From Bacteroidales bacterium (GTDB taxonomy: Bacteria > Bacteroidota > Bacteroidia > Bacteroidales > F082): a stretch of 64,000 nucleotides of DNA. The position numbers were made by a program, and so were the translations under genes. Numbering within the stretch: position 1 is the first letter of the stretch; every line of letters begins with the position of its first letter. Below the pieces are notes generated by a model. That model saw only the letters and a list, made by a program, of their open reading frames with translations. It made no database searches and was not told the origin of the DNA. Of the stretch, positions 1 to 17,451 are shown piece by piece. The stretch is from positions 1,996 through 65,995 of the forward strand of contig JALNZT010000006.1 in NCBI GenBank assembly GCA_023229135.1. The letters are read 5' to 3'.

Positions 1-1034
1 TGAGTGGCTTCGCCAACTGTGCCGTTTAGCATCACAGGGGTTACAGGCGACTCGGTATCTCCCAGGTTTAGGCCTGCTTTTTTTAATCCTTGCTGTAATG
101 CATTTACGATTGTCCAAAGTTTTTCGCGCAGTTCAGGCTGCGTACGAATCAGGTCAAGGCGCTTTAACGCACCAATAACCATTGGCATAGGCAGCGATTT
201 TGCAAAAATCTGCGAACGCATATTGTACATCAGGTATTTTATCACGTGATGATCACCGGCAATAAAAGCACCAATTCCGGCCATGGATTTGGCAAAGGTG
301 CCAAAATAAAGATCAACTTCTTTCTGAACGCCGAAATGCTCATCAGTGCCGGCGCCGGTAGCTCCCATCGTTCCGAAGCCATGAGCATCGTCAACCAGCA
401 ACCTGAAATTAAATTTTGATTTTAGAGCAACAATTTCTTTCAGTTTGCCTAAATCGCCCGACATGCCATAAACGCCTTCGGTAATAACCAAAATGCCGCC
501 ACCACTTATCTCCGTCAGTCGTTGAGCGCGTTTTAGCTGGGTTTCCAGGTTTTCGATATTGTTGTGCGGATACACAAAGCGTTTTCCAAAATGTAAGCGC
601 ATTCCATCAATAATGCAGGCATGTGCTTCTGAGTCGTAAACAATGACATCACGGCGGTCAACGATTGAATTAATCACCGAAACCATGCCTTGATAACCAT
701 AGTTGAGCAGGTAAGCCGATTCGCGTTTCACGAAAGCTGCCAGCTCTCTTTCAAGTTGTTCGTGATAGTTCGTCTGACCCGACATCATCCTGGCACCCAT
801 TGGGTAAGCCATGCCATACTCTGCAGCACCTTCGGTATCTGCTTTGCGTACTTCCGGGTGATTTGCCAGCCCGAGGTAGTTATTCAAACTCCAGATTAGC
901 CTTTCTTTGCCCCTAAATATCATTTTATTGCTGATGTCGCCTTCCAGTTTTGGAAACATGAAATAACCTTCTGCCTGATCGGCATATTGGCCTAAAGGGC
1001 CTAAATTAACTGAACATTTATCAAATACATCCAC
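1..1034 (-). CDS. PLP-dependent alpha-oxoamine synthase family protein (8-amino-7-oxononanoate synthase / 2-amino-3-ketobutyrate CoA ligase-like); C-terminus outside window
   Basis: Absent from the ORF track because it runs off the left edge. My reverse-strand translation from GTG at 1034 reads VDVFDKCSVNLGPLGQYADQAEGYFMFPKLEG..WSLNNYLGLANHPEV..LLVDDAHGFG..GTFAKSMAGIG, which includes the PLP-lysine region of this family. An in-frame TAA lies just upstream of the GTG. Confidence 0.8.
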   Translation of the reverse strand, partial: MDVFDKCSVNLGPLGQYADQAEGYFMFPKLEGDISNKMIFRGKERLIWSLNNYLGLANHPEVRKADTEGAAEYGMAYPMGARMMSGQTNYHEQLERELAAFVKRESAYLLNYGYQGMVSVINSIVDRRDVIVYDSEAHACIIDGMRLHFGKRFVYPHNNIENLETQLKRAQRLTEISGGGILVITEGVYGMSGDLGKLKEIVALKSKFNFRLLVDDAHGFGTMGATGAGTDEHFGVQKEVDLYFGTFAKSMAGIGAFIAGDHHVIKYLMYNMRSQIFAKSLPMPMVIGALKRLDLIRTQPELREKLWTIVNALQQGLKKAGLNLGDTESPVTPVMLNGTVGEAT

Positions 1035-1320
1035 TTCTGTAAAGTTTTAGTTTTAGCCTGCAAAGGTAGTAAATATACTGATTTCAAAGGCCTGCTTTAA
1101 TTGCTTCACAGGATACTTTTTTTTGGGACAGTCAGGCTGCCTCATTTTATTTTCTTTAACATTATTTTACTCCTTTCGATGTACTAAACAAAATGATTAT
1201 ACGTTAGATAGACTGATTTTTTATAGATAGTGCCAAACAGCTAAACAATAGGCAAATGACAATAAAAACTCAAAATAAAAATCCTTATTTTTCGATGCTA
1301 ATTTTATGTAATTTTGCCCC

Positions 1321-2121
1321 ATGATAAAAAAACTGCTTTTTTTGGTAGGCATAATAGGCTTGACAAGCCTGTATTCATGCGGTAAATATCAAAAACTTAT
1401 CAAAAGTACGGACAATGAAGCCAAGTATGAGGCAGCGATTGATCTTTTCGAACGGAAAGATTACAGCCGTGCCTTAGAGCTTTTCGACCTATTGCAGGCA
1501 GCATATCGGGGCACAGCAAAAGGCGAAGACATTAGCTATTACACAGCCTATTGCTACTATCATATGCGTGATTATACCGTTGCCAGCTACTACTTTAAAA
1601 GATATGTGCAGTCGTATCCACAATATGCCAGGGCAGAGGAGTGCTTATATATGAATGCTTACTGCTACTATCTAGATTCGCCCCGAGCAAGCCTCGATCA
1701 ATCGAATACTTACCTCGCAATAAGTGAGTTACAGCTGTTTGCAGATACCTATCCAAACAGTGAAAGGGTGGCTGAAGCCAATCAGTTAATTGATGACCTA
1801 AGAGAAAAGTTGGAGCTTAAAGCATACAATATCAGTGTAATGTACTATCGCATGCGCGATTATATGGCAGCAATAACTTCTTTTGAAAACCTCATGAAAA
1901 ACTATCCCGACACGGATCGTAAAGAAGAAATTTTGTATTATATGTCGCTAGCTTACTATGAATTTGCAGAAAATAGCGTGCTGGAAAAGAAAAAGGAACG
2001 CTATGAGGCAGCGGTAGAAACCTATAATAATCTTTTGTATTTATTCCCTGAAAGCGAGCACCTGATTGACCTTGCTCAATTGGATGCAAAAGCCAGAAAA
2101 CGTTTAGAATCGTATCAATAA
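1321..2121 (+). CDS. bamD: outer membrane protein assembly factor BamD (TPR lipoprotein)
   Basis: 266-aa ORF with lipoprotein signal LFLVGIIGLTSLYSC and TPR-like repeats (YEAAIDLFERKDYSRALELF). It sits in the bamD-rpoZ-coaBC neighbourhood typical of Bacteroidota. Confidence 0.8.
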   Translation: MIKKLLFLVGIIGLTSLYSCGKYQKLIKSTDNEAKYEAAIDLFERKDYSRALELFDLLQAAYRGTAKGEDISYYTAYCYYHMRDYTVASYYFKRYVQSYPQYARAEECLYMNAYCYYLDSPRASLDQSNTYLAISELQLFADTYPNSERVAEANQLIDDLREKLELKAYNISVMYYRMRDYMAAITSFENLMKNYPDTDRKEEILYYMSLAYYEFAENSVLEKKKERYEAAVETYNNLLYLFPESEHLIDLAQLDAKARKRLESYQ

Positions 2122-2128
2122 TAATTTT

Positions 2129-2461
2129 ATGGACTTTAAGAAGATCAAAACAGAAACTACTGCTGTTACACGGCAGAAAGACCAGTTTTACGAAGGAACT
2201 GGAAATATTTACGAAACAGTTGCTATTCTTGCCAAGCGAGCCAACCAGATTTCGGCAGACCTGAAAGAAGAACTCAATAATAAGATTGCGGAATTCGCCT
2301 CTTCATCCGATAACCTGGAAGAAGTGTTTGAAAACCGGGAGCAAATTGAAATTGCTAAATTTTATGAACGCCTGCCTAAACCTACGCTCATTGCTGTGCA
2401 TGAATTTTTGCACAACGAAATCTATCACCGCAACCCACACAAAGAAAGTAGCGACTTTTAA
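2129..2461 (+). CDS. rpoZ: DNA-directed RNA polymerase subunit omega (long Bacteroidota form)
   Basis: 110-aa ORF. The segment NIYETVAILAKRANQI resembles the omega core helix (NRFDLVLVAARRARQM in E. coli). Its position between bamD and coaBC also fits. Confidence 0.65.
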   Translation: MDFKKIKTETTAVTRQKDQFYEGTGNIYETVAILAKRANQISADLKEELNNKIAEFASSSDNLEEVFENREQIEIAKFYERLPKPTLIAVHEFLHNEIYHRNPHKESSDF

Positions 2462-2472
2462 TCTATTTTTGC

Positions 2473-3687
2473 ATGCTGAAAGGTAAAAAAATTCTTATCG
2501 GAATTACTGGAAGCATTGCAGCTTATAAAATTCCGCTGCTGGTACGCTTGCTGGTGAAACAACAAGCTGAGGTGCAAATTGTTATGACGCCTTCAGCCCA
2601 TGATTTCGTTACGGCACTCACCTTATCAACGCTTAGCAAACGTCCCGTTTTATCCAAAGCTTTTGACCCCGAAACCGGCCAATGGGACAGCCATGTGGAG
2701 CTGGGATTGTGGGCCGATTTGATGCTTATTGCTCCAGCTTCTGCCAATACCTTGGCGAAAATGACACAGGGTTTGGCGGATAATTATTTGCTTACCGTTT
2801 ATTTGTCAGCACGTTGTCCTGTATTTTTTGCACCGGCCATGGATCTCGATATGTATAAACATCCGGCAACACAGCAAAATGTAAAATCCCTTGTGCAACG
2901 CGGTTACCAGCTTATTGCACCTTCTTCGGGAGAGTTGGCAAGCGGCTTGTGCGGCGAAGGCAGGATGGAAGAGCCGGAACAGATTTTTGAAAGAATCAGA
3001 TCGTATTTTGCTAAAGGACAGCGGTTTAAAGATAAAAAGGTGTTGGTTAGTGCCGGTCCTACTTACGAAGCCATCGATCCGGTGCGTTTTGTAGGCAATT
3101 ATAGCAGTGGCCGCATGGGCGTTGAGATTGCCAAAGCTTTTGCTGCCCAAGGTGCTTCCGTTACCTTGGTTTTAGGTCCGGTAAGTATCGTGCTCGATTT
3201 GTCAGGGGAAATTGATGTGATTCCCGTTACTACAGCACAAGAAATGTTTGATGGCTGCATGGCGTTTTTCGCACAGGCGGATATTGCTGTTATGACCGCT
3301 GCCGTTGCGGATTACAGGCCTGAAGAAGTGTCAGAAACAAAAATTAAAAAGCAGGCAGACGACCTCACTATAAAACTGGTTAAGAACAAAGATATTTTAG
3401 CTACAATGGGTAGTCAAAAGCGTGAGGATCAGTTTTTAGTTGGTTTTGCGCTGGAGACAGACAATGAAATTGAAAACGCGAAAAAGAAACTACATACCAA
3501 AAAGCTGGATTTGATCGTTCTTAACTCACTGTCGGATGCCGGAGCAGGTTTCGGTCATCATACCAATAAGGTTAGCTTTATTGATAAATCAGGTGAAACA
3601 AAGCCTTACAGCTTGAAATCAAAAACTGAAGTAGCTGAGGATTTGACGGATACTGTTTTTGCGAAAACTAAGAATGTAAATAATTGA
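2473..3687 (+). CDS. coaBC: bifunctional phosphopantothenoylcysteine decarboxylase / phosphopantothenate-cysteine ligase
   Basis: 404-aa ORF with the N-terminal flavoprotein motif KKILIGITGSIAAYK and a C-terminal ligase half (VSAGPTYEAIDPVRFVGNYSSGRMG). Confidence 0.92.
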   Translation: MLKGKKILIGITGSIAAYKIPLLVRLLVKQQAEVQIVMTPSAHDFVTALTLSTLSKRPVLSKAFDPETGQWDSHVELGLWADLMLIAPASANTLAKMTQGLADNYLLTVYLSARCPVFFAPAMDLDMYKHPATQQNVKSLVQRGYQLIAPSSGELASGLCGEGRMEEPEQIFERIRSYFAKGQRFKDKKVLVSAGPTYEAIDPVRFVGNYSSGRMGVEIAKAFAAQGASVTLVLGPVSIVLDLSGEIDVIPVTTAQEMFDGCMAFFAQADIAVMTAAVADYRPEEVSETKIKKQADDLTIKLVKNKDILATMGSQKREDQFLVGFALETDNEIENAKKKLHTKKLDLIVLNSLSDAGAGFGHHTNKVSFIDKSGETKPYSLKSKTEVAEDLTDTVFAKTKNVNN

Positions 3688-3716
3688 GATTAAGCGCCAC
3701 TAAGCTAAAACTATTT

Positions 3717-4622
3717 ATGTCGAAAAAAGTATTATTGTTTATTTTCAGTTTATTGCTGCTTTTGCCTGCAGCTAAATCTCAGGAATTTTTGGCAGACATC
3801 CGCGTAACCACGCCAACTATTGAAGGGACAGACAAACGTGTTTTCGAGGCTTTGCAATCGGCTTTATATGATTTTGTGAATAACCGGAAATGGACCAATA
3901 TCAATTTTAAAAATCAGGAACGCATTGAGTGTTCTATATTGATAACCATTAAGGAACGCGTTTCGTCTGATGAGTTTAAAGGCACAATAAATTTGGTGCT
4001 GAGGCGTCCGGCTTTTAAATCATCCTACAATAGTGTGTTGCTAAACTATATTGACGAGAATTTCCAGTTTCGCTATATTGAGTCGCAACCGCTTGATTTT
4101 ATTGAGAATACCTATAGCTCAAGCCTTACCTCAACGGTAGCTTTTTACCTTTATTATTTTTTAGGACTAGATTTTGATAGCTATTCGCTTTACGGTGGCG
4201 ATCCCTTTTACCGGGTAGCCGAAGCCATTGTTAACTCAGCACAAAACGCCCAGGAAAGAGGCTGGAAAGCCTTTGACGGAAACAGAAATCGCTATTGGCT
4301 GGTAGAAAATATGACCAATCCCGCTTATCGTCCTCTCCGTCAATTTTCTTATGAATATCACCGACTTGGTTTAGATATCATGTCAGAAAAACCTGACGAA
4401 GGCCGCGCTGCCATTGGCCAAAGTCTCACTTACTTGCAGCAAACCTGGAAAGATCGGCCAAACCTGCTGACTCTACAACTGATTTTTGATGCTAAACGTG
4501 ACGAAATCATCAATGTTTTCTCTCAGGGAAGCCCGCAGGAAAAAACCAAAGCGGTAAATATCATGCGTGAAGTTGACCCGTCTAATGCTTCTAAGTATGA
4601 GAAGATTTTGGCACCGAATTGA
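3717..4622 (+). CDS. DUF4835-like secreted protein; its 3' end is the insertion hotspot
   Basis: The track ORF starts at TTG 3684, overlapping the coaBC stop. ATG 3717 gives the signal peptide MSKKVLLFIFSLLLLLPAAKSQ. The family name is recalled from the conserved coaBC-DUF4835-recN neighbourhood and has not been verified by search. Confidence 0.65.
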   Translation: MSKKVLLFIFSLLLLLPAAKSQEFLADIRVTTPTIEGTDKRVFEALQSALYDFVNNRKWTNINFKNQERIECSILITIKERVSSDEFKGTINLVLRRPAFKSSYNSVLLNYIDENFQFRYIESQPLDFIENTYSSSLTSTVAFYLYYFLGLDFDSYSLYGGDPFYRVAEAIVNSAQNAQERGWKAFDGNRNRYWLVENMTNPAYRPLRQFSYEYHRLGLDIMSEKPDEGRAAIGQSLTYLQQTWKDRPNLLTLQLIFDAKRDEIINVFSQGSPQEKTKAVNIMREVDPSNASKYEKILAPN

Positions 4623-4764
4623 TGCTGGTTATTAGCAGGAATAATCTGTTGTGGTGTTGTTCGTAATGCTTTTGAATTTAATTTACGAAAATTAAAGCAT
4701 GAAAACTTGTATTTTTTTCATTGCAGAGAGTGTTAGTGAAAATCAATAATAACCAAAATCCATA

Positions 4765-6561
4765 CTAGAGTTTTGAAACCCCAAGGTAAACGGTCTCATC
4801 GTTCCTCATGATGCTAAAAATCATGATTTCACCTGAATCATTTCGGCTAATACTATAAGGTGTTGTCTTGAGAGTATTATAGGTCTCAGGAAAAACTTTT
4901 ATTAATTTGGTGTTGCTTGTTCCAACAGTTGTTTGAGAAATATAAAAATAGCTTCCATCAAAAATAATACTATAGACCAAATCATCTTTTACTATGAAAT
5001 CTATGACTTTCTTGTTCAATACTGATCCTAATTCCGTAAAATACTCAAGAGATATTTCTTGTAATTTAACTGAATCTTCAGGTGTACTCCAAGCTTCAAA
5101 AATCGTTGTTACCCGACTATTCCGCTCCATTTGTGAAGATAAGGTATATAGCTGTCCAATATAACTGTCCATCAAATAGAAATTACTATCTACACCTTTT
5201 TTTATTATTGGTTTAAAAAATGAATAACCGGTTTTGTGCTGTTTGTGCCAAACGGGGAGTGATCCTACTGTTGAAACAAAGTTACCACTGAGGTCGAACA
5301 TATTCAATGCCGGAGTTTGTTGATAAAAATTTTCATTAAACGGATTATCGCTTTCACTCTCAGGAGTATCACCTGTGCCTGTTATGGGCCATCCTGTTTT
5401 CACTGGCAAGTATATTGAATTCTCAATAACGAAAAAATTCGTGTGACTAAACCCTTTAATCTTATTTATGGCCTCTTCTTCAAAAGTCACTTTACTCCAT
5501 TCGCCATTATTATGATCAGTATCTATTTTTCGATGAAAGATTACGGGTTTGTTCTTATAACCTATGCTTTCGTTTTCTCTATCTTCATAAAATAAATGAG
5601 GTAAGGATGCTGTACAAAAGACACTTCCACTGCTCATTATTGATTTAAGAAACATGGTATGCAAAACATTGGTAGCTTTCAGGTAATCCACAAGCATTGA
5701 AGGTATATCATCTTCAATAAACAATCTGTCGTTGAAAGAAGAGTCAGGTGTGCTGGCATTAACTTTAAAAACTGAATCTTTCAATATGTAATGGATTGAT
5801 TTATCAGTGAGGTGATCGTCAATTGTAATATGTTGCATATCATCAGAAATGGAAAAGTTCATTATATCAGACAAAATGAATTCGGATTGGTCAATGAGGT
5901 ATTGCTTATAGTTAAGCATAAACTCAGGCTCATATTTAATATTTGGATAATCTTTAAAGGATGCTGAGAATTGAAGCGCAGTACTTTTTTCTTTCAAGAT
6001 TGGCTTATCGGATTTATCGTCTATTATAAAACTGCTGTCTGATTGTTGAGGTTTTTCAAAAGCCTGAAAATAGGATTCAGCAATTTCCTCCTTGTATTGG
6101 AGGCCAAGTAAAGCATCAGATTTTAATAAAACACCCCTTTTGGTGTCAAACTTCATTATGTATGGAACCTGAACTCCACTTGTAGAAAACTTGAAATTGT
6201 CAAATAATTCATCATTGGGTTCAATTACAACAATCCTTGAAGCACCGTAATTCTTCTTTTTAAGGTAGTCTAATGCAGCAAGTTGGTATGGGTAAACAAC
6301 TATTAGTAAGGTTTCCTCATCATTAATTATACGGGATATATCTTTAAAAAATGGAGCTATTGCCCCTTCGCATCTCGGGCAGTTGCCAAGAGGGAGAAGA
6401 ACAGCATACAAATCACCTGCGGGAATATCGCGCTTACTAAACCAATCGCTCAACTTTGGCTCTGTTTCATTAAGCTGTTCCACTTGATGTAGGGCTTGCT
6501 GCTGTGCAAAAGCTTGGATGACAATTAATGACATGACTAAAAAAGAAGTTGTTGTTTTCAT
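4765..6561 (-). CDS. secreted protein with an N-terminal thioredoxin-fold-like CPRC domain and a large C-terminal domain of unknown function
   Basis: 598-aa ORF with signal peptide MKTTTSFLVMSLIVIQAFAQQ. It has a CxxC motif (LPLGNCPRCEGAI) and a later VPYIMKFD segment resembling the cis-Pro loop of TlpA/ResA-type redoxins. I recognise nothing in the C-terminal roughly 400 aa. Confidence 0.55.
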   Translation of the reverse strand: MKTTTSFLVMSLIVIQAFAQQQALHQVEQLNETEPKLSDWFSKRDIPAGDLYAVLLPLGNCPRCEGAIAPFFKDISRIINDEETLLIVVYPYQLAALDYLKKKNYGASRIVVIEPNDELFDNFKFSTSGVQVPYIMKFDTKRGVLLKSDALLGLQYKEEIAESYFQAFEKPQQSDSSFIIDDKSDKPILKEKSTALQFSASFKDYPNIKYEPEFMLNYKQYLIDQSEFILSDIMNFSISDDMQHITIDDHLTDKSIHYILKDSVFKVNASTPDSSFNDRLFIEDDIPSMLVDYLKATNVLHTMFLKSIMSSGSVFCTASLPHLFYEDRENESIGYKNKPVIFHRKIDTDHNNGEWSKVTFEEEAINKIKGFSHTNFFVIENSIYLPVKTGWPITGTGDTPESESDNPFNENFYQQTPALNMFDLSGNFVSTVGSLPVWHKQHKTGYSFFKPIIKKGVDSNFYLMDSYIGQLYTLSSQMERNSRVTTIFEAWSTPEDSVKLQEISLEYFTELGSVLNKKVIDFIVKDDLVYSIIFDGSYFYISQTTVGTSNTKLIKVFPETYNTLKTTPYSISRNDSGEIMIFSIMRNDETVYLGVSKL

Positions 6562-6598
6562 TTTATTTATTATTTAGTTAGACAAGTAATACTAAATC

Positions 6599-6640
6599 AA
6601 GGTTGCTGTGCTACTTTATTGTCAGAAGCACAGCAACCTT
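6599..6640 (-). terminator. perfect 14-bp stem hairpin between the small-protein genes and the 598-aa gene
   Basis: aaggttgctgtgct (6599-6612) pairs with agcacagcaacctt (6627-6640). On the minus strand it is followed by gatttagtatt. Confidence 0.5.
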
Positions 6641-6647
6641 GTACCGC

Positions 6648-7028
6648 CTATTTGAAATTAATGCGATCACCAAGTATAAACTCAGGCGCGTGGCTTTCAT
6701 TGAGGTTCGTAAGGTCTATTTCACTCACTTGTAATAATTTAGCCATGGTTTCATTGCCATCAGCATCGTAAAACGTGACTGAAACGAAAGGAGGTTCATT
6801 ACCATCACTATTCGTAATGTAATCCCATATCTCTTGCCAGGAAACAGAAATAGAAGCACATTTATTAAATGCAAAGCCAGGGCATATTTTAATGTTGCCA
6901 TTATTGATTTCAGCGCCTGCCTTGCCGTAAATAGGAACTTCTACACCGTAAGAATAATTCGTTGCAAATGCGAATAAGCATATCAAGAGATATTTTGTCA
7001 TTGTTGATGAGACGAATTTTTTCATCAT
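6648..7028 (-). CDS. small secreted Cys-containing protein, paralogue of 7025-7357
   Basis: 126-aa ORF with a signal-like N-terminus (LLICLFAFATNYSYG). It shares YGK[GA]G..IKICP..C[AS] motifs with its neighbour. Its start overlaps the upstream stop (ATGATGA). Confidence 0.7.
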   Translation of the reverse strand: MMKKFVSSTMTKYLLICLFAFATNYSYGVEVPIYGKAGAEINNGNIKICPGFAFNKCASISVSWQEIWDYITNSDGNEPPFVSVTFYDADGNETMAKLLQVSEIDLTNLNESHAPEFILGDRINFK

Positions 7029-7357
7029 TCAATTAGTTTAATTTTAATAGATTCACCTTGAACACCACCTTCAGGACTTATTTCAGGCAGCATAAAGACT
7101 CCAATATCATCTTTGCTAATCACAATGATGTTGCCATCAACTCCATTTATTTTTAAGTCATCGATGTCAATTGTTAAGGTCGCGCATAGCGCAGAACTAG
7201 CTTCAGGGCAAATTTTAATAGTAGTGCCTCCACTGCCATGGTCTCCAGACACACCGCCCTTTCCATATACCTTTAGTTCCGCAGCTTCGGTTGATTGAGT
7301 AAAAAGAAATGCTAAAGCTGTAAATGCTATAACAGTTAAACTTTTAAACGTTTTCAT
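7025..7357 (-). CDS. small secreted Cys-containing protein, paralogue of 6648-7028
   Basis: The track ORF 7025-7429 has an implausible N-terminal extension into the leader hairpin. The internal ATG at 7357 gives MKTFKSLTVIAFTALAFLFTQSTEA followed by AELKVYGKGG..IKICPEASSALCA. Confidence 0.7.
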   Translation of the reverse strand: MKTFKSLTVIAFTALAFLFTQSTEAAELKVYGKGGVSGDHGSGGTTIKICPEASSALCATLTIDIDDLKINGVDGNIIVISKDDIGVFMLPEISPEGGVQGESIKIKLIE

Positions 7358-7448
7358 TTTTTTTAAGTTTAGTGGTTTGTAAATATGGTAAGTAACGAAG
7401 AACGCCATCTCAATAAAATATAACATCATTGAGACGGCCCACCTCGGC

Positions 7449-7999
7449 CGAACTTATTCTTCCCCAGCCAAAAGATGTATTTAGTTGTGCAATATGGCAC
7501 AAATTGTCTATCAAATAAAAGTGTGTAGTAAAGCTCATGACAACAAGCTACATCAAAGGATACTAACCGGGCTAAACCACCATGCCTTGCTTTTGCGGGG
7601 GGGGGTAAAGCCATATTGTTCAGGATACCAGAGCGAACTTATCAGCTGCCTACGCTTTAAAGCACACAACTTAAAGATTGCGGTTAGAAAAGACCTAAAA
7701 AAACGGATAGTTTTCATAAGCTGGTTTTGAGGCTTCAAGTATAAGTACAATAAACATAAAGCACAACTTTTTTTTTGCGATTTTGCAATAAAAAAAACAA
7801 ATATTTTTTATGTTACTGAAATTCAATTGAATAAAACTGTTTTTTAAGCTTGATAAATTCTAAAAGGTGGCTGAGAGAGCTTATATTAACTAAATGCGCT
7901 GGAAAAAATGGGAGCAAAACTCAAGCTCTATAACTGATTATCAATGCCAATAGAGACGGATTTAGGGAGGCACGGATTGCAAATCCGCGCCAGCGGGTG
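7449..7999 (-). repeat. promoter/leader module copy A (heads cassette A)
   Basis: It aligns by eye along its whole length with 17736-18270, 24793-25358 and 26807-27299. It contains a G9 run at 7597-7605. Confidence 0.9.
7736..7766 (-). promoter_or_regulatory. Bacteroidota-type promoter in module A (TTG-20 nt-TATACTTG)
   Basis: The minus strand reads agTTGtgctttatgtttattgtactTATACTTGaagcc. This is one mismatch from the TAnnTTTG -7 consensus, and copies D and E match it perfectly. Confidence 0.45.
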
Positions 8000-8065
8000 A
8001 ATATTATGCGTGAGGTTGATCCGGCTAATGCTTCTAAGTATGAGAAGATTTTGGTGCCGAGGTAA
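8000..8065 (+). pseudogene. displaced 3'-end fragment of the DUF4835 gene
   Basis: aatattatgcgtgaggttgatccggctaatgcttctaagtatgagaagattttggtgccgaggtaa is colinear with 4557-4622. It encodes NIMREVDPANASKYEKILVPR* versus NIMREVDPSNASKYEKILAPN* in the gene. Confidence 0.85.
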
Positions 8066-8082
8066 TAGTTTTTTATTCAATC

Positions 8083-9381
8083 TCACGTTTTGTCGAAAAG
8101 AATATGCTTTAATGGTTGTAATACTCTATGAAACAGGCGAATATCGTTTGTGATTATCTCAGCAGTACCTTTCAGGCGTTGTTTGAAAACAAAGGTTTTA
8201 CCATAGCTGGTTTTTAAACCTGCCGGAAAATTTACTGTTGCATAGTAAACTCCCTCGTCAGGTATTTCAGAAATATGCGAGATTACGCCTTCGAGCATGC
8301 CATACTCCATATAAGGATAATTATCCAATCTGATATTTACTTTTTGACCCGGTTCAACTTTGCCGGCTCCTTCGGCTGGTAGCAGTAGCATTCCTTTTAG
8401 CGCTCCATGCGAATCGGGTAATATGGTAAAAACCGTTTCATTAGCATTCAGGTTCTGATTTTTTGCCCAATACTTAGTAAAAACACACTTGCCTGACTGA
8501 GGTGTTCTTAGCACATATTTTTGCTCCCAGATTTCCAATTGCGCCTTCAGATTATTTCCGGCTTCAACAAGTGCTGAATACAAACTTTCGTGTTGTTGTT
8601 TGTCCAGCATTTTAAACTCTGCAATAGTACTTTGCATTTGACTGATCTGTATTTGAATATTAGCCATGTTTGTTCTGATACTTTCAAAAGCCAGTTTTCT
8701 GTTAAGGTATTGGCTTTGGGCTTTTTCAAGTTCCTGCTCCGGAATTACCTGCTCATCAAATAGTTTTACATAGCGTTTATAGTCTTTTGAGGCTAATTCA
8801 AAATCACTTTTCAAGGTTTTAAACTGCTCATTAGTAAAGTCATATAATGTGCGGTAGTCAATTAATTGAAGCTGTGTTGTATTGATTTTGTTATTATAAT
8901 AGTCTATTTCCCTATAACTTTGATAGGCATGCTGTGCCGATGTAAATGCTGAATAATAAACCTGAAGCTCACCCAACTTACCTAAGCTAATAGGAATATC
9001 CCATTTATTCAAGCTATCATTTGCCTGCCATTGGCTACTTAGCGTGTTTAAATGTTTTTTAAGAACTACAATTTCTGAATAATCGGCAGGATTTTCCACC
9101 AGTCCAAGAACTTGATCTTCATGTACTTTCTGATTTTCTATAACAAAAAAAGTATCTATTTTACCACTTACCCTGGCCTTAATCTCAGTCGGTGGAAGGT
9201 TTCCGGTAATTTCAATACTTGCATGTACTACATCAGGATATTTAAAAAACCAACTCGCTGTTATAAATAGCGCAATAATGACAAAAAATACCGAGATGCC
9301 CCAGCTCACAAGACTTCCCGGGGTTTTTCCCAGTATTTCGTCAATTTCGCCTGTGCGTATGTCTGTCAGATTTGCTGGCAT
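8083..9381 (-). CDS. HlyD-family membrane fusion / secretion adaptor protein
   Basis: 432-aa ORF with one N-terminal TM segment (VSWGISVFFVIIALFITASWFF) and a long coiled-coil middle. It lies directly downstream of the C39 ABC exporter. Confidence 0.8.
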   Translation of the reverse strand: MPANLTDIRTGEIDEILGKTPGSLVSWGISVFFVIIALFITASWFFKYPDVVHASIEITGNLPPTEIKARVSGKIDTFFVIENQKVHEDQVLGLVENPADYSEIVVLKKHLNTLSSQWQANDSLNKWDIPISLGKLGELQVYYSAFTSAQHAYQSYREIDYYNNKINTTQLQLIDYRTLYDFTNEQFKTLKSDFELASKDYKRYVKLFDEQVIPEQELEKAQSQYLNRKLAFESIRTNMANIQIQISQMQSTIAEFKMLDKQQHESLYSALVEAGNNLKAQLEIWEQKYVLRTPQSGKCVFTKYWAKNQNLNANETVFTILPDSHGALKGMLLLPAEGAGKVEPGQKVNIRLDNYPYMEYGMLEGVISHISEIPDEGVYYATVNFPAGLKTSYGKTFVFKQRLKGTAEIITNDIRLFHRVLQPLKHILFDKT

Positions 9382-9456
9382 GGAATATACTATTTTTAAC
9401 TGTTTATTTACGCTTATGAATTTTCGTTCAGTTTTTTCAAATCTAATGTTTATTGT

Positions 9457-11664
9457 TTAGTTTCCAAGTTCTAGTTGATTTTTGACCAGTTTGTAATAGC
9501 TTCCCTTAAGTTTTGTCAATTCCTGGTGCGTGCCTTGTTCGATGATACTACCTTTTTCCAGCACTACAATCTGATCTGCATTTTTAACAGTGCTGAGCCT
9601 GTGGGCAACCACCACAACAGTTCGTCCTTTGAAAAATTCATTCAGGTTTTCCATGATCACTTTTTCGTTGTTGGCATCCAGCGCATTAGTCGCCTCATCA
9701 AAAAAAATAAATTGAGGGTCTTTATAGACTGCCCTGGCAATTAATATACGCTGTTTTTGTCCTTGACTAAGTCCAACTCCTTCCTGACCGATCATGGTAT
9801 TAAAGCCAAGTGGTAGTGTTTCGATATGTTCCAATATATTGGCAACCCGAGAAGCATGTAGTAGCTTACTGAAATCCAACTCGTCTTCGCTGATGCTGAT
9901 GTTGCCGGCAATGGTATCAGAAAAAATAAAGCCATCCTGCATTACAGCACCCACTTTGGAACGCCAGACACTGGCAGAAAGATTATCCACCCGAAATGGG
10001 CCTATACGTATTTCACCCGCCACAGGCTTGTAAAAGCCCAAAAGCAGTTTGAGCAAAGTGGTTTTTCCACTTCCCGATGTGCCTACAATTGCTGTTACTT
10101 TGTTTTGAGGGATTTTGAGGTCTAGCGCGTTAAGTACCAAAGGCGAACGAGGCCCGTCATACTGGTATGAAACGCCACTTAACAAGATGTCCTGTTCTGT
10201 GTCAAGTTCCCTTATTTTTACATTCATCTTATCGGCCGGTTCTTCATCTTCACGCAGGTGTATTTCACCCAATCTTTCAAGACTGATTTTGGCGTCTTGG
10301 GCAGCACGTACAAATCCTATCATTTGGTCAACCGGGGCATTCATCATACCAATGATGTACTGCACGGCCATCATCATACCGAGCGTCATCTCGCCTTTTA
10401 CAACCGCGTAAGCCGCCATAAAGGTGATGAGTATATTTTTTGACTGGTTAAAAAACGTTGCCCCGGCCTGTTGGTACTGGTTGAGTGCTAAGCCTTTTAT
10501 ATTTACGCGAAACAACCTGGCCTGTATTTTTTCCCACTCCCATCGTTTCTGTTTCTCGCAGTTGTTAAGTTTAATCTCCTGCATACCAGTAATCAATTGT
10601 ATCAGGTTACTTTGATTACCGGCCATTTGCGCGAAGCGTTTAAAATCCAATTCGCGGCGTTTTTTCATAAAGACCAGCACCCAAAGGGTATATAAAATGC
10701 TTCCGGCAAGGAAAACGAGTAAGATGCCCACATTATATACGCCAAGCACGATGGCAAATACAGCAAGGTTCACCACGGCAAACAAGATTTGCAAGGAAGA
10801 GGCTGTCAAAAAGCTTTCGATACGGCTATGATCACCAATGCGTTGCATCAGGTCGCCAATCATTTTGCTGTCAAAATAGCCCAGGGGCAGCTTCATCAGC
10901 TTGATCAGGAAATCGCTTATAAGCGAAATGTTGATGCGTGTGCTGATATGTAGCAATATCCAGCTACGAATAAACTCAACGGCTGTCTGGCCAAAAAATA
11001 AAACCAATTGCGCTATCAGCACTAAAGTGATAAAATTGAGATCACGTGTGTTGATACCCACATCTACTACTGCCTGGGTGAGGAATGGAAAGATAAGCTG
11101 TATGATACTGCCCAACAGCATGCCCAATATAAGCTGTACTAAAAGTTTGCGGTGCGGGCGCAAATAGGAGAACAAAAACCGGAAGTTTTTTTTGTTGACT
11201 ATTTCTTCTTCGTTGGTATAGAAATCCGGTGTGGGTTCCAGCAACAGACAAACGCCCATGTCCTCGTCTTCGTTTTTAGTGCTTACCCAGCCTTTTAGGA
11301 ATTCTTCCCTGCTATACGTAATAAGCCCGTGCGCAGGATCGGCTACTTTTACTTTGTCTTTTTTCTTCCCGCTAATCTCATATACCACCACAAAATGCTG
11401 CTGTTTCCAGTGGGCGATGCATGGTAGCGGGACTTCGTTAGCCAGCTTGTCGAAGGTGATTTTTACACCCATAGTTCTGAAACCGATTTTCTCGGCTGCA
11501 TCGCTGATGCCGAGCAAGGAAACCCCTTCACGGTTAATATGACAATACTCCCTTAGCACGGGCAAACTGTGTCGCTTGCCGTAGTGTCTGCTAATCGCAT
11601 CCAGGCAGGCCGGGCCACAGTCGCGGGCGTCGAGTTGGGGGGTGAAATTATATCTCACTTTCAA
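9457..11664 (-). CDS. peptidase C39 domain-containing ABC transporter (double-glycine leader cleavage/export)
   Basis: 735-aa ORF. It has the N-terminal C39 Cys motif PQLDARDCGPACL, six-TM region, Walker A GTSGSGKTTL, ABC signature LSQGQKQRI and Walker B IFFDEATNALD. Confidence 0.93.
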   Translation of the reverse strand: MKVRYNFTPQLDARDCGPACLDAISRHYGKRHSLPVLREYCHINREGVSLLGISDAAEKIGFRTMGVKITFDKLANEVPLPCIAHWKQQHFVVVYEISGKKKDKVKVADPAHGLITYSREEFLKGWVSTKNEDEDMGVCLLLEPTPDFYTNEEEIVNKKNFRFLFSYLRPHRKLLVQLILGMLLGSIIQLIFPFLTQAVVDVGINTRDLNFITLVLIAQLVLFFGQTAVEFIRSWILLHISTRINISLISDFLIKLMKLPLGYFDSKMIGDLMQRIGDHSRIESFLTASSLQILFAVVNLAVFAIVLGVYNVGILLVFLAGSILYTLWVLVFMKKRRELDFKRFAQMAGNQSNLIQLITGMQEIKLNNCEKQKRWEWEKIQARLFRVNIKGLALNQYQQAGATFFNQSKNILITFMAAYAVVKGEMTLGMMMAVQYIIGMMNAPVDQMIGFVRAAQDAKISLERLGEIHLREDEEPADKMNVKIRELDTEQDILLSGVSYQYDGPRSPLVLNALDLKIPQNKVTAIVGTSGSGKTTLLKLLLGFYKPVAGEIRIGPFRVDNLSASVWRSKVGAVMQDGFIFSDTIAGNISISEDELDFSKLLHASRVANILEHIETLPLGFNTMIGQEGVGLSQGQKQRILIARAVYKDPQFIFFDEATNALDANNEKVIMENLNEFFKGRTVVVVAHRLSTVKNADQIVVLEKGSIIEQGTHQELTKLKGSYYKLVKNQLELGN

Positions 11665-11715
11665 ATCAATTCTTGCTTAAGCATTTACTTGCCTTTCTCC
11701 AGAACAACATCATTA

Positions 11716-12996
11716 TTATTCAGTCTTATCATTATCTTGCCATGTTTTTTTAACAGGATCGTAATTACAAAGATTCATAATACCAAAGTAAAGCTCATAA
11801 CTAGATATTGGCTGACATAAATATCGGTATACACAATTTTTACAGGGTTCAACTTTTGCCCTTGTTAAATACCAGGAGCTATCTTCTATCGTATGAGCGT
11901 TGCGCAATATTTCAATCAGTTTGTTGCTTTTTATATTGCCAATATGAGGCATGTTCAAATTAGCATGAACATCACCATTGGGAAGAATAAATAACTTCCC
12001 AAAGCTTAAATGGTTTATAAACAATCTGGAGGCAATTTCACGATGAGTTAATGACTGATTCTCAACATCTGCCTTGTTACTTTTTATCACTTCAAATAAA
12101 GCATTTGACGTTGAGTTATCTATGAATGGGATCAATTCATAGGTAATGCCTTGTGTAATAAAAATTTGCTCCAAGTCTGAAATATCATTCACATCACGAA
12201 TAATTATCTTAAAAACTATTCTTGAGATGGAATCCTCATTCATCGAGAAAAAGTCAAATAATAACTTACGTTCGGTTTTGAAATCGACCCATAAAATAAA
12301 TTTTAAGTTCTCTGTATAAGTAAGTGTTTTATTATCTAATAATTCTATTACAGCGTCAGAGATATAAGCATTATAATGAACAAAACAATCCTTAAAAAAA
12401 TCGCACGTATCCTTTATTTTCTTTAGTGAAATCTCATTTCCATACAATTGAACTTTTCTAAGGCCCGGAAAAGCTTCACCCCTAAAAAAACGTAAAACCA
12501 AGTTACTACTTTCATACTGAGCCTCATTTAGGTTTATGATTGGAGCATTGATTTGTTTACTACCCGACGTATTAAATGCTGAATCAGTAATGTTTGTTGA
12601 GGAATCTCCGTAATATATAAACACCTCTTTTAGTGAATATCGGAGGTTCAAAGTTTGCCATGTTTTATCATTATTTATGTTATTAACATCGAAGTTCAGT
12701 TTTGGCGCAAAAGGCAGGATTAAAGGACGATAATGACTTTCAATTAAATCCCCGTGAAAATAATCTCTGCATAAAACTATGAATGCTGTGATTTCATCGT
12801 CAATCAACTCATTTTCATCCAAAAGGGTAATTCTATTAACATCATCTTTGAGTAATCTCGAAATGAATTCAACCCCTTTTATTCCTTTAAATAGAAAGGT
12901 AGAAGTTATACTATTAATCGTATTATGTAGCAAAATTTGATTATCAATGAGATCTGAATGAACATAAGGTTCAAGATAAAAAAAGGAATTAAGCAT
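11716..12996 (-). CDS. pseudo-rSAM protein (SPASM-like Cys cluster, no CxxxCxxC), partner of the radical SAM maturase
   Basis: The track ORF extends to 13086. ATG 12996 (MLNSFFYLEPYV) overlaps the rSAM stop as ATGCTTAA. The C-terminus has CKNCVYRYLC..C, and there is no radical-SAM Cys triad. This matches my memory of the GG-Bacteroidales pseudo-rSAM family. Confidence 0.7.
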   Translation of the reverse strand: MLNSFFYLEPYVHSDLIDNQILLHNTINSITSTFLFKGIKGVEFISRLLKDDVNRITLLDENELIDDEITAFIVLCRDYFHGDLIESHYRPLILPFAPKLNFDVNNINNDKTWQTLNLRYSLKEVFIYYGDSSTNITDSAFNTSGSKQINAPIINLNEAQYESSNLVLRFFRGEAFPGLRKVQLYGNEISLKKIKDTCDFFKDCFVHYNAYISDAVIELLDNKTLTYTENLKFILWVDFKTERKLLFDFFSMNEDSISRIVFKIIIRDVNDISDLEQIFITQGITYELIPFIDNSTSNALFEVIKSNKADVENQSLTHREIASRLFINHLSFGKLFILPNGDVHANLNMPHIGNIKSNKLIEILRNAHTIEDSSWYLTRAKVEPCKNCVYRYLCQPISSYELYFGIMNLCNYDPVKKTWQDNDKTE

Positions 12997-14476
12997 AGCG
13001 CGTTTTTCTCCATATTTCTGAGTAAACATCAGTAAATGCCTCAAAGAATGAGTAGTAATCCCTAAGAAGATCAATGTGATCTTCATTTTTTAGATGGGAA
13101 CATTTTACTGTTTTATCTTCCTTTATTATATTTAGAAACAAACATTCTTTGCATAGGTTGACTCGATAACAGTTATTGCATTTCCCTTTTAATTTTTCAA
13201 AGTGATTATTATACATCATAACAATCTTTTCATAATCTAAAAATACTTTTCCATTTTGAACATTACCTAATGAATACTCATGCGCAATGGCTTCGCAGGG
13301 CAGTATTTTTCCCTTTGCTGTGACAAACATTCTTTTGCTAAACGGATTGCAGGTGCCAGTAGGAAGAAAATTGCCCTTAGTATTGTAATTAAATAAGTCA
13401 TCAATTGTAGAAAAATGGTTATTCGTATAGTTTCTAAGAAACATGTTATAGCTCAAAGATTCACCTGAGGAAAGAAAACACTTTTTATGCTCTGATTTAT
13501 TAAGATCGTAATTATGACCATCGTAATTGAATTTTTTTCCAACTAATAGCGGATTTACCTCGGTGCCGGCAATTGATTTTTTGAATTCTCTCCAAATAAA
13601 TTCCTGAATAGAAATGAAATCATTTCTGTCGTGTAGTACCGCATTAAAAAGTACATTTTGTTCAAAAAATGAAGGGTAGTTCCTCTTAACCAAGTGGATG
13701 TTCTTGAATACAACCTTAAATGATTCTTTGTTATTAGGAAAAAGTCTGTAGCTATTCGCAAATGAGTCTCCGTCAAGACTAATAGTAAGCGCAAAGTTGT
13801 TTTTTGCAATGAATTCAATGTGTTGGTTTAACAAAACACCATTAGTTGTCATGTTAAACCTAAAGTTGAGGGGAGTGTTTTTGCTCAATTCTTCAATATA
13901 GGAAACTAATTCCTCAATGAAAGGAAAGTTCAATAACGGTTCGCCACCAAAAAATCCGATGAATATTTCTTTTTCAAGATTACTGTTAACTTTACTAAGC
14001 CACTTTGGTATTAAGTATTCTATTACTGCTTTAGCATTAGCAATACTTAAATCAAGATTATTCCGTGAATCATGAGTGTGATAATTATCTCCATAAAAGC
14101 AGTACTTACACTGGAGATTGCATCTTTCAGTAATTTCAAACACTAGAGCGCGTAAGTTTGATAACTCATAGTTAATATCGGAAGGCTTTAGTCGCCCTCC
14201 AATAATTTGTTCGTTGCTAATAGTATTAAAAAATCCGTTTTCTTTTAGGAACTCAAACTTACGTTTATAGTATATATCTGCTTTCTCCTTTGTCTTAAAA
14301 AGTAAGCTATCAGATTCGTCTTGATTTTCCTCAGTAATGGACCTATTGTTTGTTGCGTTGAAATCTTTTAGTTTTATATACCTAACTACCATTGGATTCA
14401 TATAAATAATATGCTTCTTATAAAAGCTAAATAAGTATTGATTATGTTTGGTAGTGAATAAATTAAAATCAGGCAT
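12989..14476 (-). CDS. radical SAM/SPASM domain peptide maturase
   Basis: 495-aa ORF with the radical SAM triad ITERCNLQCKYCFYG. SPASM motifs are GTCNPFSKRMFVTAKGKILPCEA and CNNCYRVNLCKEC. Confidence 0.9.
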   Translation of the reverse strand: MPDFNLFTTKHNQYLFSFYKKHIIYMNPMVVRYIKLKDFNATNNRSITEENQDESDSLLFKTKEKADIYYKRKFEFLKENGFFNTISNEQIIGGRLKPSDINYELSNLRALVFEITERCNLQCKYCFYGDNYHTHDSRNNLDLSIANAKAVIEYLIPKWLSKVNSNLEKEIFIGFFGGEPLLNFPFIEELVSYIEELSKNTPLNFRFNMTTNGVLLNQHIEFIAKNNFALTISLDGDSFANSYRLFPNNKESFKVVFKNIHLVKRNYPSFFEQNVLFNAVLHDRNDFISIQEFIWREFKKSIAGTEVNPLLVGKKFNYDGHNYDLNKSEHKKCFLSSGESLSYNMFLRNYTNNHFSTIDDLFNYNTKGNFLPTGTCNPFSKRMFVTAKGKILPCEAIAHEYSLGNVQNGKVFLDYEKIVMMYNNHFEKLKGKCNNCYRVNLCKECLFLNIIKEDKTVKCSHLKNEDHIDLLRDYYSFFEAFTDVYSEIWRKTRYA

Positions 14477-14492
14477 AAATTATCTATTATCG

Positions 14493-15752
14493 TTAATAAT
14501 GATTGTTAATAAACTCCCTAATGTAATCATTTAAATCTGATCGTTTTATCTTTAATACTTCCTCGATACAGTTGTAGAAATCTTCTTCATTGTCAGCTTC
14601 ACACAGATAAAGTTCTTTTACTTTTTCGTAGCCGCCCTGGCGGTATGCAATGTCAACAATTGCTGCATGAATGGTGTAAATAAAAGGCGTTTGCATTTCA
14701 TCATCTTTGTAATGCTTTAAACTTTCAATGTATTTACCATCCAAAGGATAGCCAAACGTTAAATAGCCATCATCATTATAATAATAGCAAACAAGACTCC
14801 CGGAAAGATCAATCCAGGGGTTGGTATTTAGATAATGTTTGAGTCTGTAAATATGGAATAGGTAGTTTTTTGTTAATACCCCACCAAAGTAGGTAGCGAT
14901 CCCTTCCTCAAAATAAGTGGTTTTTTCTTTTTGGAAAAAGTTAAGTAACAGATGTATTATTTCATGAAGGTCATCTTCACCAGTTCCACCAGCTATAATA
15001 ATATTATTAGCTGATAGTGCCATAGCTTCTCTATTACTCAATCCGGAAATAAAATCTGTATCATAGTGTTGCACACCAAACAATATTGCAGCATCAGTTA
15101 GATTATCAGCTAAAACGTATGTAATCGAATCATTGAATTCAATTCCGAATCCATCTTTGAAAGTTTGTATTTTGGATTGCATAGCGATAGCCTTTTCAGT
15201 ATTAAACACATAGTCGCGATCATAATAGAATCTGATTAAACCAATTCTTTTTGTTTCTAACATATTCTTATGATGTGAGAAAGCATTGGTAAGCTTAAAC
15301 TCTCCATTGGCTTGTTTTTTTATTGGGACAGTGATCATGTATGAAGGGATTCGCTTCCACATTTCTTCAGGATAGGCCAAAAACATGGCTCTTAACTCAA
15401 ACAAACTTTCCTCCCGTTTGATAATGCCCAATAAATATTCCTTTTCCATTGGGTAAAAAACGTTTCCACTAGCCCTTTTAAAAGAATAAAATAAATCCGG
15501 GAATTTGTATTGATCAATTTCGTTTTGATCCCAATATTTATGTAATTCCTCAGGAAACTCGTTTAATATGTAGCTTTTTTTTGCACTGTGATAATTAAGC
15601 TCGTCAAGGTAGCTTTCCCATAAATCATAAATTTCTGTAAATCCGGTGAATGTTGTGTCAACGAATGGACTAATTATTGTTTCCGGTCGTGTTTGTGTTT
15701 GGCTGCTAAGAGAAATCAATAAACCGACAAATAGTAAGAATATTCTTTTCAT
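14493..15752 (-). CDS. secreted HExxH (gluzincin-like) putative zinc metallopeptidase, paralogue 1
   Basis: 419-aa ORF with a signal-like N-terminus MKRIFLLFVGLLISLSSQ and the motif LHEIIHLLL...YFEEGIATYFGG (HExxH plus a downstream Glu). Confidence 0.6.
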   Translation of the reverse strand: MKRIFLLFVGLLISLSSQTQTRPETIISPFVDTTFTGFTEIYDLWESYLDELNYHSAKKSYILNEFPEELHKYWDQNEIDQYKFPDLFYSFKRASGNVFYPMEKEYLLGIIKREESLFELRAMFLAYPEEMWKRIPSYMITVPIKKQANGEFKLTNAFSHHKNMLETKRIGLIRFYYDRDYVFNTEKAIAMQSKIQTFKDGFGIEFNDSITYVLADNLTDAAILFGVQHYDTDFISGLSNREAMALSANNIIIAGGTGEDDLHEIIHLLLNFFQKEKTTYFEEGIATYFGGVLTKNYLFHIYRLKHYLNTNPWIDLSGSLVCYYYNDDGYLTFGYPLDGKYIESLKHYKDDEMQTPFIYTIHAAIVDIAYRQGGYEKVKELYLCEADNEEDFYNCIEEVLKIKRSDLNDYIREFINNHY

Positions 15753-15785
15753 ATTTATAATTCATTAAGAATAACACCAAATAGA

Positions 15786-15820
15786 AGTTAAAATCCTGTC
15801 TAAATAGCAGGATTTTAACT
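15786..15820 (-). terminator. hairpin immediately after a precursor gene
   Basis: agttaaaatcctg (15786-15798) pairs with caggattttaact (15808-15820). On the minus strand it is followed by ttctatttggtgttattc. Confidence 0.55.
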
Positions 15821-15832
15821 CCTAATCAATAG

Positions 15833-16030
15833 TTAATATTCAAGATTATTCTTTGGGCCAGTTATTCCTGCACTTTGCCGGTTTGACTGTGTTTGGTCAT
15901 GAATTGAGCCCGGATCACCGCAATCGCAACTGCAACTGCAAGCTGGTGTAGAACCTCCACCACCCTGATCTCCACCTTTAATGTGGTTTAATGAATCTTG
16001 GGTCATTTTGATTAATTTTAGATTTTTCAT
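15833..16030 (-). CDS. RiPP precursor peptide with a double-glycine leader and CxCxCxC core
   Basis: MKNLKLIKMTQDSLNHIKGG | DQGGGGSTPACSCSCDCGDPGSIHDQTQSNRQSAGITGPKNNLEY. It lies next to rSAM, C39-ABC and HlyD genes. Confidence 0.85.
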   Translation of the reverse strand: MKNLKLIKMTQDSLNHIKGGDQGGGGSTPACSCSCDCGDPGSIHDQTQSNRQSAGITGPKNNLEY

Positions 16031-16111
16031 ACTTTGAATTGTTAAATTGTTAATAATCGTGATAAACTATAAATAAATTGTAAAGCCGAACATAAAAAGT
16101 CAGGCATAAGC

Positions 16112-17371: not shown

Positions 17372-17402
17372 ATTTATAATTGATTAATAGTAATACCAAA
17401 TA

Positions 17403-17441
17403 GGAGTTAAAATCCTATATAAAGAGTAGGATTTTAACTCC
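17403..17441 (-). terminator. hairpin immediately after a precursor gene
   Basis: ggagttaaaatccta (17403-17417) pairs with taggattttaactcc (17427-17441). It is followed on the minus strand by a T-rich stretch. Confidence 0.55.
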
Positions 17442-17451
17442 TTTTCAATAG

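Follow-up and report, generated by a model that had tools for sequence, protein, structure and literature searches.

How did pieces of the 3′ end of one conserved gene come to lie scattered through the DNA downstream of it, and was a dedicated recombinase needed to put them there? The question is raised by a stretch of 64,000 nucleotides from a Bacteroidales bacterium (GTDB lineage Bacteroidales; F082; NCBI GenBank assembly GCA_023229135.1, contig JALNZT010000006.1, positions 1,996 to 65,995 of the forward strand), called the window below. The gene, located at 3717-4622 on the plus strand with a likely ATG start at 3717, encodes a DUF4835 protein (Pfam PF16119, E=1.7e-100) and forms the conserved left flank of an insertion hotspot, whose conserved right flank is recN (30355-32013, plus strand). 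A preliminary description of the window had interpreted the copies of the gene end as attL/attR-like hybrid sites. Our analysis confirmed that these copies are genuine and stem from DNA having been inserted repeatedly at a single chromosomal hotspot. Of the earlier interpretation, the reused hotspot with displaced gene ends was retained, whereas the reading as att sites is unproven and wrong in several details: one arm is a repetitive extragenic palindromic (REP) element, one junction was duplicated, and other gene fragments are relics borne by a module.

All four sequences quoted for the gene end and its junctions were found in the window. A repeat search aligned gene positions 4553-4617 with 7996-8060 (repeat D14: 65 nt, 89% identity, spacing 3443 nt). 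The left copy of this direct repeat, which surrounds the newest insertion, belongs to the current gene tail (G3′a, 4553-4622, plus strand). The right copy belongs to a displaced gene tail (G3′b, 7996-8065, plus strand), which contains an in-frame stop codon at 8063-8065 and runs on into a HlyD operon exactly as in a related genome (L211). The displaced tail shows the substitution pattern of a functional allele; relatives carry alleles (GTGAATATTATGCGTGAG, DPANAS) to which it is nearer than it is to the resident gene. A second repeat family (D10) comprises 4500-4587, 27301-27388, and 30153-30240, with gene nt 4500-4559 copied at 27301-27360 and 30153-30212. The junction at 30213 stands as first described, but the third copy is found at 30153-30212 and not at 30162-30221. 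The core pattern AAAGYGGWDAAT occurred 3 times against 0.31 expected, a count reached in 0 of 100 shuffles, and GAGGCTCGCCAGTCAGG occurred exactly twice.

As an independent check on the assembly of these junctions, megahit contigs of sample ERZ27247346 were used. Contig k141_22259 corresponds to window 7781-18194 at 99.98% identity and includes the succession of REP, gene tail, and HlyD; contig k141_1174621 corresponds to 20355-42013 at 99.995% identity and includes at 100% both copies of the junction that we call G5′/R below. Every gene-fragment junction was recovered in independent contigs, the link 7704-7780 being the sole part without such support, and the orthologous junction of tail and HlyD is present in other samples and other species. 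The fragments are not artefacts of this assembly.

The DUF4835 protein served as query against 80 relatives from the Lentimicrobiaceae and other Bacteroidales, each species being represented by one genome. recN begins 35-230 nt past the DUF4835 gene in 62 of these relatives, in the order coaBC-DUF4835-recN-fabI, in agreement with the earlier statement that the two genes are often neighbors. In L001, the closest species at 95% protein identity, the site is empty: L001 positions 1018-1244 match window 4400-4626, and 1325-1423 match 30298-30398. The inserted island, absent from this relative, therefore spans 4627-30297 (25.7 kb) and begins 4 nt after the stop codon. It is more AT-rich than its flanks, as was noted before, with a GC content of 0.29-0.38 across 12-30 kb vs 0.40-0.49 outside. 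Neither the island nor the upstream module discussed below had matching DNA in any of the 80 species-level loci, and a second downstream copy of the own gene tail was found in none of 79 species-level relatives; the tail-relic phenomenon is confined to the clade bearing these operons. Two loci without a nearby recN (L016 and L030) were considered as further islands and rejected, as they contained housekeeping genes and no integrases.

The history of the site could be followed among species sharing the window's 90% DUF4835 protein cluster, in which we found one empty site and at least 5 occupied contents other than that of the window. This synteny upholds the proposal of several insertions between DUF4835 and recN. 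Beside the empty site of L001, a pre-insertion state (L211/L212) has the full gene convergent with the HlyD gene of operon B, 16 nt apart. In a further state (L213, L207), the gene is followed by a different cassette encoding 218/203-aa proteins, a module, genes for DUF6934 and a 53-aa open reading frame (ORF), a decayed gene tail, and HlyD, the latter 93% identical to that of the window. In the window itself, the order is gene, operon A, module, REP, gene tail, and HlyD, while L214/L215 carry another gene set with a module at its end. Yet other sequence follows DUF4835 in L204-206 and L209-210, whose contigs break 60-230 nt past the stop codon. Compared with L211, the window contains an additional 3443 nt, and the 65-nt tail is found on either side of them; in L213/L207, about 3.2 kb of unrelated DNA is inserted and the displaced tail begins at gene nt 4560. 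These two different insertions both left a displaced gene tail in front of the same orthologous HlyD junction. A direct repeat at both cassette ends with the gene intact is seen in the window only for the newest cassette, and likewise in L213. Taken together, the displaced tail of the window and the pre-insertion and alternative states in relatives show that repeated insertion at the DUF4835 end, with displacement of the old end, is correct as a general idea. No new junction was found in HlyD cluster P0135, whose three contigs all stop within the relic.

The island is a stack of minus-strand operons for ribosomally synthesized and post-translationally modified peptides (RiPPs), each behind a copy of an upstream module of about 570 nt, conserved at 75-96%. 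The copies, all on the minus strand unless stated, share their proximal part and fall into types (H, V, and G5′) by their distal ends. H-type copies are located at 7432-7968 (copy 1), 17720-18241 (copy 2, which has a 153-nt exact repeat in common with copy 1), and 24790-25327 (copy 3). A partial copy with only the proximal ~150 nt lies at 21992-22165. Copy 4 (26791-27360) and the stub of a fifth module (30132-30212, plus strand) are of the G5′ type. A profile of the module matches the gene at 4445-4506, and in local alignments a stretch of the gene, copied from nt 4445 onward, formed the end of every module. This gene copy stops at about nt 4503 in H-type modules, where the REP follows (in copy 1, 7899-7958 is an old copy of gene nt 4445-4503), and at about nt 4496 in the V-type modules of L081 and L213. 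In copy 4, 27245-27360 copies gene nt 4445-4559, and the stub copies nt 4477-4559, with a stop codon inside. The supposed gene left arms, taken earlier for attL, are therefore the ends of an older fragment built into every module, whereas an attL would sit at the gene.

Both G5′-type modules adjoin the same segment R, formerly described as a common foreign right arm: R-1 (27361-27432, plus strand), which has a weak hairpin, and R-2 (30213-30272, plus strand). At both G5′/R junctions the whole R segment is in common, and each lies at the upstream end of a module. The operon at the second junction is mostly deleted; it is intact in L219 as module, precursor, radical SAM, 424-aa protein, and FtsX, of which the window keeps only FtsX. 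It follows that G5′/R is one junction copied with its module, not two insertions, and the junctions at 27351 and 30213, previously counted separately, were inherited with a module subfamily. R was not found elsewhere in any fetched locus. For the same reason it was rejected as a repeat or as ancestral intergenic DNA, and its folding is unremarkable (z ~ -0.7 to -1.0). A natural alternative C-terminus of DUF4835 was ruled out as well, as 79 of 79 relatives end in …NIMRE[VI]DP[AS]NASKYEKIL….

Further features of the module are the invariant CGAACTTATTCTTCCCCA, the palindrome TTGTGC-N6-GCACAA, and a poly-G tract (9-13 G), within which contig L214 ends. The module is presumably a shared promoter or leader, and possibly phase-variable. 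RNAalifold gave no covariation support for the module, in what was a weak test with one input range misplaced, and an Rfam scan of 1-34000 returned nothing relevant.

The arm to the left of the displaced tail is a 28-nt element, GGCACGGATTGCAAATCCGCGCCAGCGG (copy 1, 7969-7996), which recurs at 18242-18269 (copy 2) and 25328-25355 (copy 3), all on the plus strand. It is identical in three modules that are otherwise 4-13% different. Its exact 24-mer occurs in at least 120 metagenome contigs (loci L082-L201) from termite gut, sediments, sludge, and other habitats, with sharp ends and as single copies, tandems, or inverted pairs. Approximately 10 of 134 copies sit 30-85 nt upstream of ORFs of 176-189 aa, and inverted copies flank those ORFs, which match the IS200-like Y1 transposase family (Y1_Tnp, 37.2 bits vs a cut-off of 23) and carry NHVH and YIHQNP. 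These are motifs of subclass 2.6 of the TnpA-REP or REP-associated tyrosine transposases (RAYTs), found mostly in Bacteroidetes (PMC6006769). The 28-nt element is a REP of Bacteroidota RAYT transposases. No cognate RAYT gene was found in the 64-kb window, and the exact REP sequence was not found in the searchable literature.

In all three window copies, the 3′ end of the REP is a homology boundary: at 7996 it meets the gene tail, at 18269 a truncated SPASM paralog, and at 25355 unrelated DNA. Because the same end bounds 18270 and 25356, neither of which is gene-derived, this arm is not specific to the DUF4835 site, and the supposed module-derived arm is a generic REP. The REP in module 1 falls at roughly the matching position within a copy of the tail, and this copy may extend unbroken from 4445 to 4622; the REP would then be an insertion into a relic and not a junction. 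Two other origins of the REP were rejected. Its hairpin resembles a tRNA-Cys anticodon arm, but ARAGORN detected no tRNA, either in the window or where the hairpin occurs in 27 metagenome loci; a phage origin was dismissed, as REP and module core were absent from viral contigs. In a species 87% identical in DNA (L204-L206), a partial reverse REP, CCCCCCCCGCTGGCGCGGATTTGTAATC, lies about 6 nt past the DUF4835 stop codon and is followed by an unrelated convergent ORF; the contigs, from three samples, break after DUF4835 at this partial REP and ORF.

The core to which all junctions had been assigned, AAAGCGGTAAAT, lies at 4548-4559 on the plus strand. Three breaks, which we judged to be independent, do cluster at gene nt ~4551-4560: that of the REP and tail in the window (~4548-4554, with a 4-5-nt overlap AGCGG), that of unrelated DNA and tail in L213/L207 (4557-4560), and that of G5′/R (4559/4560). 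They are staggered, however, and the gene fragments also break at nt 4445, ~4496, and ~4503. The tail relic of L213 and the G5′ relic of the window are exactly complementary (4559/4560), so that one old insertion into a module-borne relic could have produced both, one on each side. The junction arms (REP, CTGTACTTAC, and R) are mutually unrelated, and no conserved recombinase-binding arms were found at the junctions. In line with the preliminary description, no Pfam match to an integrase or transposase family was found among the window ORFs tested, nor downstream of DUF4835 in L016 and L030; the precomputed Pfam annotations likewise listed no recombinase among the cassette genes of L207, L213, and L214. 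The gene core showed no secondary structure. As a dif/Xer-like site it was rejected, with 6 of 11 positions matching by eye in the XerC arm and a poor match in the XerD arm. One DUF4835 fragment from an NCBI metagenome-assembled genome (P0134, approximately window 4538-4560) ends in …SPQEKNQSCEYYA, owing to a +1 frameshift in an A6 run beside the core, which is either a sequencing error or a sign that the run is slippery. A literature search on DUF4835 returned a single, unrelated paper.

The DUF4835-recN gap in this small Lentimicrobiaceae clade looks like a recombination hotspot holding a mosaic RiPP operon array. The explanation that we prefer, at roughly even confidence, is homology-anchored capture of cassettes with illegitimate or REP-end joins, in which we infer homologous and illegitimate recombination instead of a dedicated recombinase. 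New operons would arrive as DNA from related genomes that already bear them beside DUF4835, with the highly conserved DUF4835 end as the homologous anchor on one side; within the array, the shared module could act as an anchor as well. The far end would be joined without homology, at short microhomologies or at a REP 3′ end. As the incoming DNA would supply a complete gene end, DUF4835 would remain intact and the resident end would be pushed downstream as a relic, and later duplications, deletions, and module-to-module recombination would copy and truncate such relics.

Several features of the array are in line with such capture. Contig L081, whose sample also yielded L202 and L203, matches window 1-7703 at 100% identity, and then switches inside module 1 to a V-type end; beyond the switch its recN is only 86.8% identical, and its recN/fabI region (L081 14117-18691) 80-87%. 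The 153-nt exact repeat of modules 1 and 2 accounts for other contig ends but not for this switch, so that L081 is a true recombinant strain or a chimera; even a chimera would still require very recent sharing of modules between two lineages. In genomes with flanks at 85-90% identity, operon B reaches 90-93%, and the modules, alike in their proximal part, differ at their distal ends. Joins also occur without regard to the DUF4835 site: the one at 18270 halves a SPASM gene, and FtsX is cut from its operon at 29920. At the 8000 junction, the AGCGG of the REP tail overlaps AAGCGG of the gene, a microhomology of 4-5 nt.

Some observations weigh against the preferred explanation. Three junctions judged independent fall within ~10 nt, for which a rough scan-statistic estimate gives p ~0.01 (182-nt tail, 11 nt). 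A gene 3′ end supplied by the element from the crossover point onward is a hallmark of integrase-mediated islands, and illegitimate recombination is rare, yet several events are needed at one locus. The recombinase search covered the window, the cassettes, and this site in relatives. A less likely rival, along the lines of the preliminary description, is conservative site-specific recombination at a core (~GGTRAAT, nt 4553-4559), by which cassettes would be integrated and excised by a recombinase whose gene lies in another part of the genome. Each cassette would carry the final ~65 nt of the gene as its attP homology. It would account for the direct repeat around the newest cassette, which starts at the core and reaches the stop codon with the gene intact, for a G5′ relic that ends at nt 4559, and for the empty and pre-insertion states among relatives. 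The second, unrelated insertion, in L213/L207, provided new data, and its displaced tail starts within ±6 nt of the predefined core, with a chance of ~0.07; when all five breaks of tail copies are counted, however, p for the clustering rises to ~0.09 (a rough estimate). The clustering at 4551-4560 is real but statistically weak, and is suggestive rather than proof of a site-specific enzyme. Neither the window, nor any cassette, nor this site in relatives yielded a recombinase, the arms are unrelated, and the breaks are staggered over ~10 nt. Moreover, a single G3′ relic exists for five cassettes, the G5′ copies are on modules 23-26 kb away and not at the gene, where an attL would be expected, and the REP arm also makes junctions at sites unrelated to the gene. 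We therefore regard a dedicated site-specific system as doubtful.

More improbable still is the action of a RAYT (HUH/Y1) enzyme, with its gene elsewhere, that would nick single-stranded DNA at the tail of the REP (immediately after …CCAGCGG) and join it just 3′ of an AGYG(G) motif, including that at the DUF4835 end, so that REP ends would be boundaries of shuffled cassettes. Each of the three window REPs does coincide exactly with a homology boundary, the break falling at its 3′ end, and the two partner sites that can be read intact both have AGYG(G) just 5′ of the join (slash): …AAAGCGG/T in the gene and …TTTAGTG/AAAT in the SPASM paralog, whose intact copy reads TTTAGTG/AAATCT at the break (12426). 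REPs flank RAYT genes with NHVH and YIHQNP motifs, some metagenome copies have partial tandem re-duplications starting after AGCGG, and the partial inverted REP of L204-206 directly follows the DUF4835 stop codon. The motif is short and was read at two partner sites only, however, the L213 and G5′/R junctions have no REP, and no RAYT gene is present in the 64-kb window. To our knowledge, no RAYT has been shown to move long cargo. Hardly credible, finally, is an assembly artefact, in which the fragments or the cassette order would stem from related strains misjoined at repeated modules. The 153-nt exact repeat of modules 1 and 2 exceeds the assembler k of 141, L081 and the window diverge after nt 7703, and many contigs of relatives break just past DUF4835. 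Against this stand the independent contigs and the orthologous tail-HlyD junction in other samples and species; only the link 7704-7780 is unconfirmed, and the existence of no junction depends on it. Homology-anchored capture remains the explanation that we favor.

The cargo of the island consists of the following operons, all on the minus strand. Operon A (4765-7429), which is identical in L081, encodes a secreted 598-aa protein with a CxxC motif and two small secreted paralogs of 126 and 134 aa; none of the three proteins had a Pfam or NCBIfam match, and no recombinase is encoded in the operon. The small paralogs have the motif …YGK.G…IKICP…C…, and the 598-aa protein contains CPRC. Operon B (8083-17649) encodes two precursors with double-glycine (GG) leaders, two 419-aa proteins, a TIGR04148 radical-SAM maturase, a pseudo-radical-SAM/SPASM protein, a C39-ABC exporter, and a HlyD-like adaptor. 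Operon C (18271-21926; repeats D4-D8) is a partial paralog with a precursor, a 416-aa protein, a 494-aa radical-SAM protein, and a truncated SPASM protein; the two operons are old tandem paralogs. The truncated SPASM ORF (18194-18889) is a paralog of the intact one at 11716-13086, reduced to its N-terminal half exactly at the REP end. An ATP-grasp peptide-maturase operon with a GG-leader precursor follows at 22820-24683, and an FtsX/MacB permease gene at 27487-29920, the fragment of the operon that is intact in L219. More distant homologs of HlyD and FtsX (P0138, P0256) appear to be present on a JGI contig of about 23 kb.

The 495-aa maturase scores 388 bits, above the TIGR04148 cut-off of 300, and the pseudo-radical-SAM protein is TIGR04150-like. 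The precursors have double-glycine leaders (…IKGG), for example MKNLKLIKMTQDSLNHIKGG/DQGGGGSTPACSCSCDCG…, and a CSCSCDCG core. With these Cys-rich GG-leader precursors, the maturase, and the C39-ABC exporter, the island belongs to the TIGR04148-family RiPP systems. A 233-nt fragment within 22014-22681 (compare 11414-11646), with 103-aa ORFs, matches the ABC exporter gene at its C39-peptidase end with 91% identity, and is a probable remnant of a second exporter gene. Just past fabI, at 33527-37416, a Y_Y_Y/His_kinase sensor and a LytTR response regulator are encoded. LytTR regulators are frequent controllers of bacteriocin loci, and this pair may regulate the modules.

The documented series of an empty site, a pre-insertion state, and two independent nested insertions shows the assembly of a RiPP/bacteriocin arsenal at one hotspot in uncultured Bacteroidota, with displaced gene ends that record the order of arrival. 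It also calls for caution: duplicated gene ends should not be read as att sites without a known recombinase, as one supposed arm is here a widespread REP. Should the breaks prove to be site-specific or driven by REP/RAYT, the locus would offer a tractable case of cassettes being captured with no integrase linked to them. If the REP/RAYT reading were true, RAYTs would gain a genome-structuring function, with REP ends as boundaries of RiPP cassettes.

Among known systems, genomic islands and accretions of integrative and conjugative elements (ICEs) and cis-mobilizable elements (CIMEs) form at the 3′ ends of genes or tRNA genes, such as the ICESt1/ICESt3 family at fda or those with tRNA-targeting integrases. 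Like these, the locus has an empty site in relatives, a direct repeat from a fixed point to the gene end, a gene kept intact by element-borne sequence, and internal relic sites. In contrast to them, no integrase was found in the island elements, the arms are not conserved, the repeat occurs at 1 of 5 boundaries, and fragments 5′ of the core are duplicated as well. With integrons and clusters of attC sites lacking integron-integrases (CALINs), the locus shares a cassette array at one place with the newest beside the insertion point; unlike there, no attC-like site is common to all boundaries, no IntI was found, and the cassettes are multi-gene operons with a long promoter region of their own. 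For RAYT subclass 2.6 (RAYT group 5), only "atypical secondary structures" beside the genes have been described (PMC6006769). Like the REPs of that subclass, the 28-nt hairpin and tail flank genes for 176-189-aa Y1 transposase-like proteins in inverted pairs and have many scattered copies; a role of this REP at cassette boundaries is our inference. The GG-leader/radical-SAM system of Bacteroidetes (CFB group; TIGR04148 and TIGR04150, NCBIfam) is matched in maturase, precursors, and exporter, but the island differs from it in stacking several diverged paralogous operons, an ATP-grasp operon, and other cassettes behind a shared module.

The closest parallel to the proposed mechanism is found in Rhs and type VI secretion system (T6SS) effector-immunity arrays, where homology-facilitated illegitimate recombination has been proposed as the cause of sequential displacement (Kirchberger et al. 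2017, PMC5361080; Jackson et al. 2009, as cited there). The model pairs anchoring by homology in a conserved gene with a far end that is joined illegitimately; arrays completed in this way subsequently spread by homologous exchange (PMC5361080). Those arrays and the island alike have an anchor in a conserved gene, a new module beside it, older 3′ ends and modules orphaned downstream, and no known integrase. The island differs in that it displaces the conserved tail of a non-toxin gene, for which the incoming tail has nearly the same sequence, and in that its cargo consists of RiPP operons with their own promoter modules and with REPs at several boundaries. As in other sequential-displacement arrays, we found conserved flanks around variable content, displaced 3′ ends, and mosaic identity, and we place the locus, as a new example, among loci of a kind already known.

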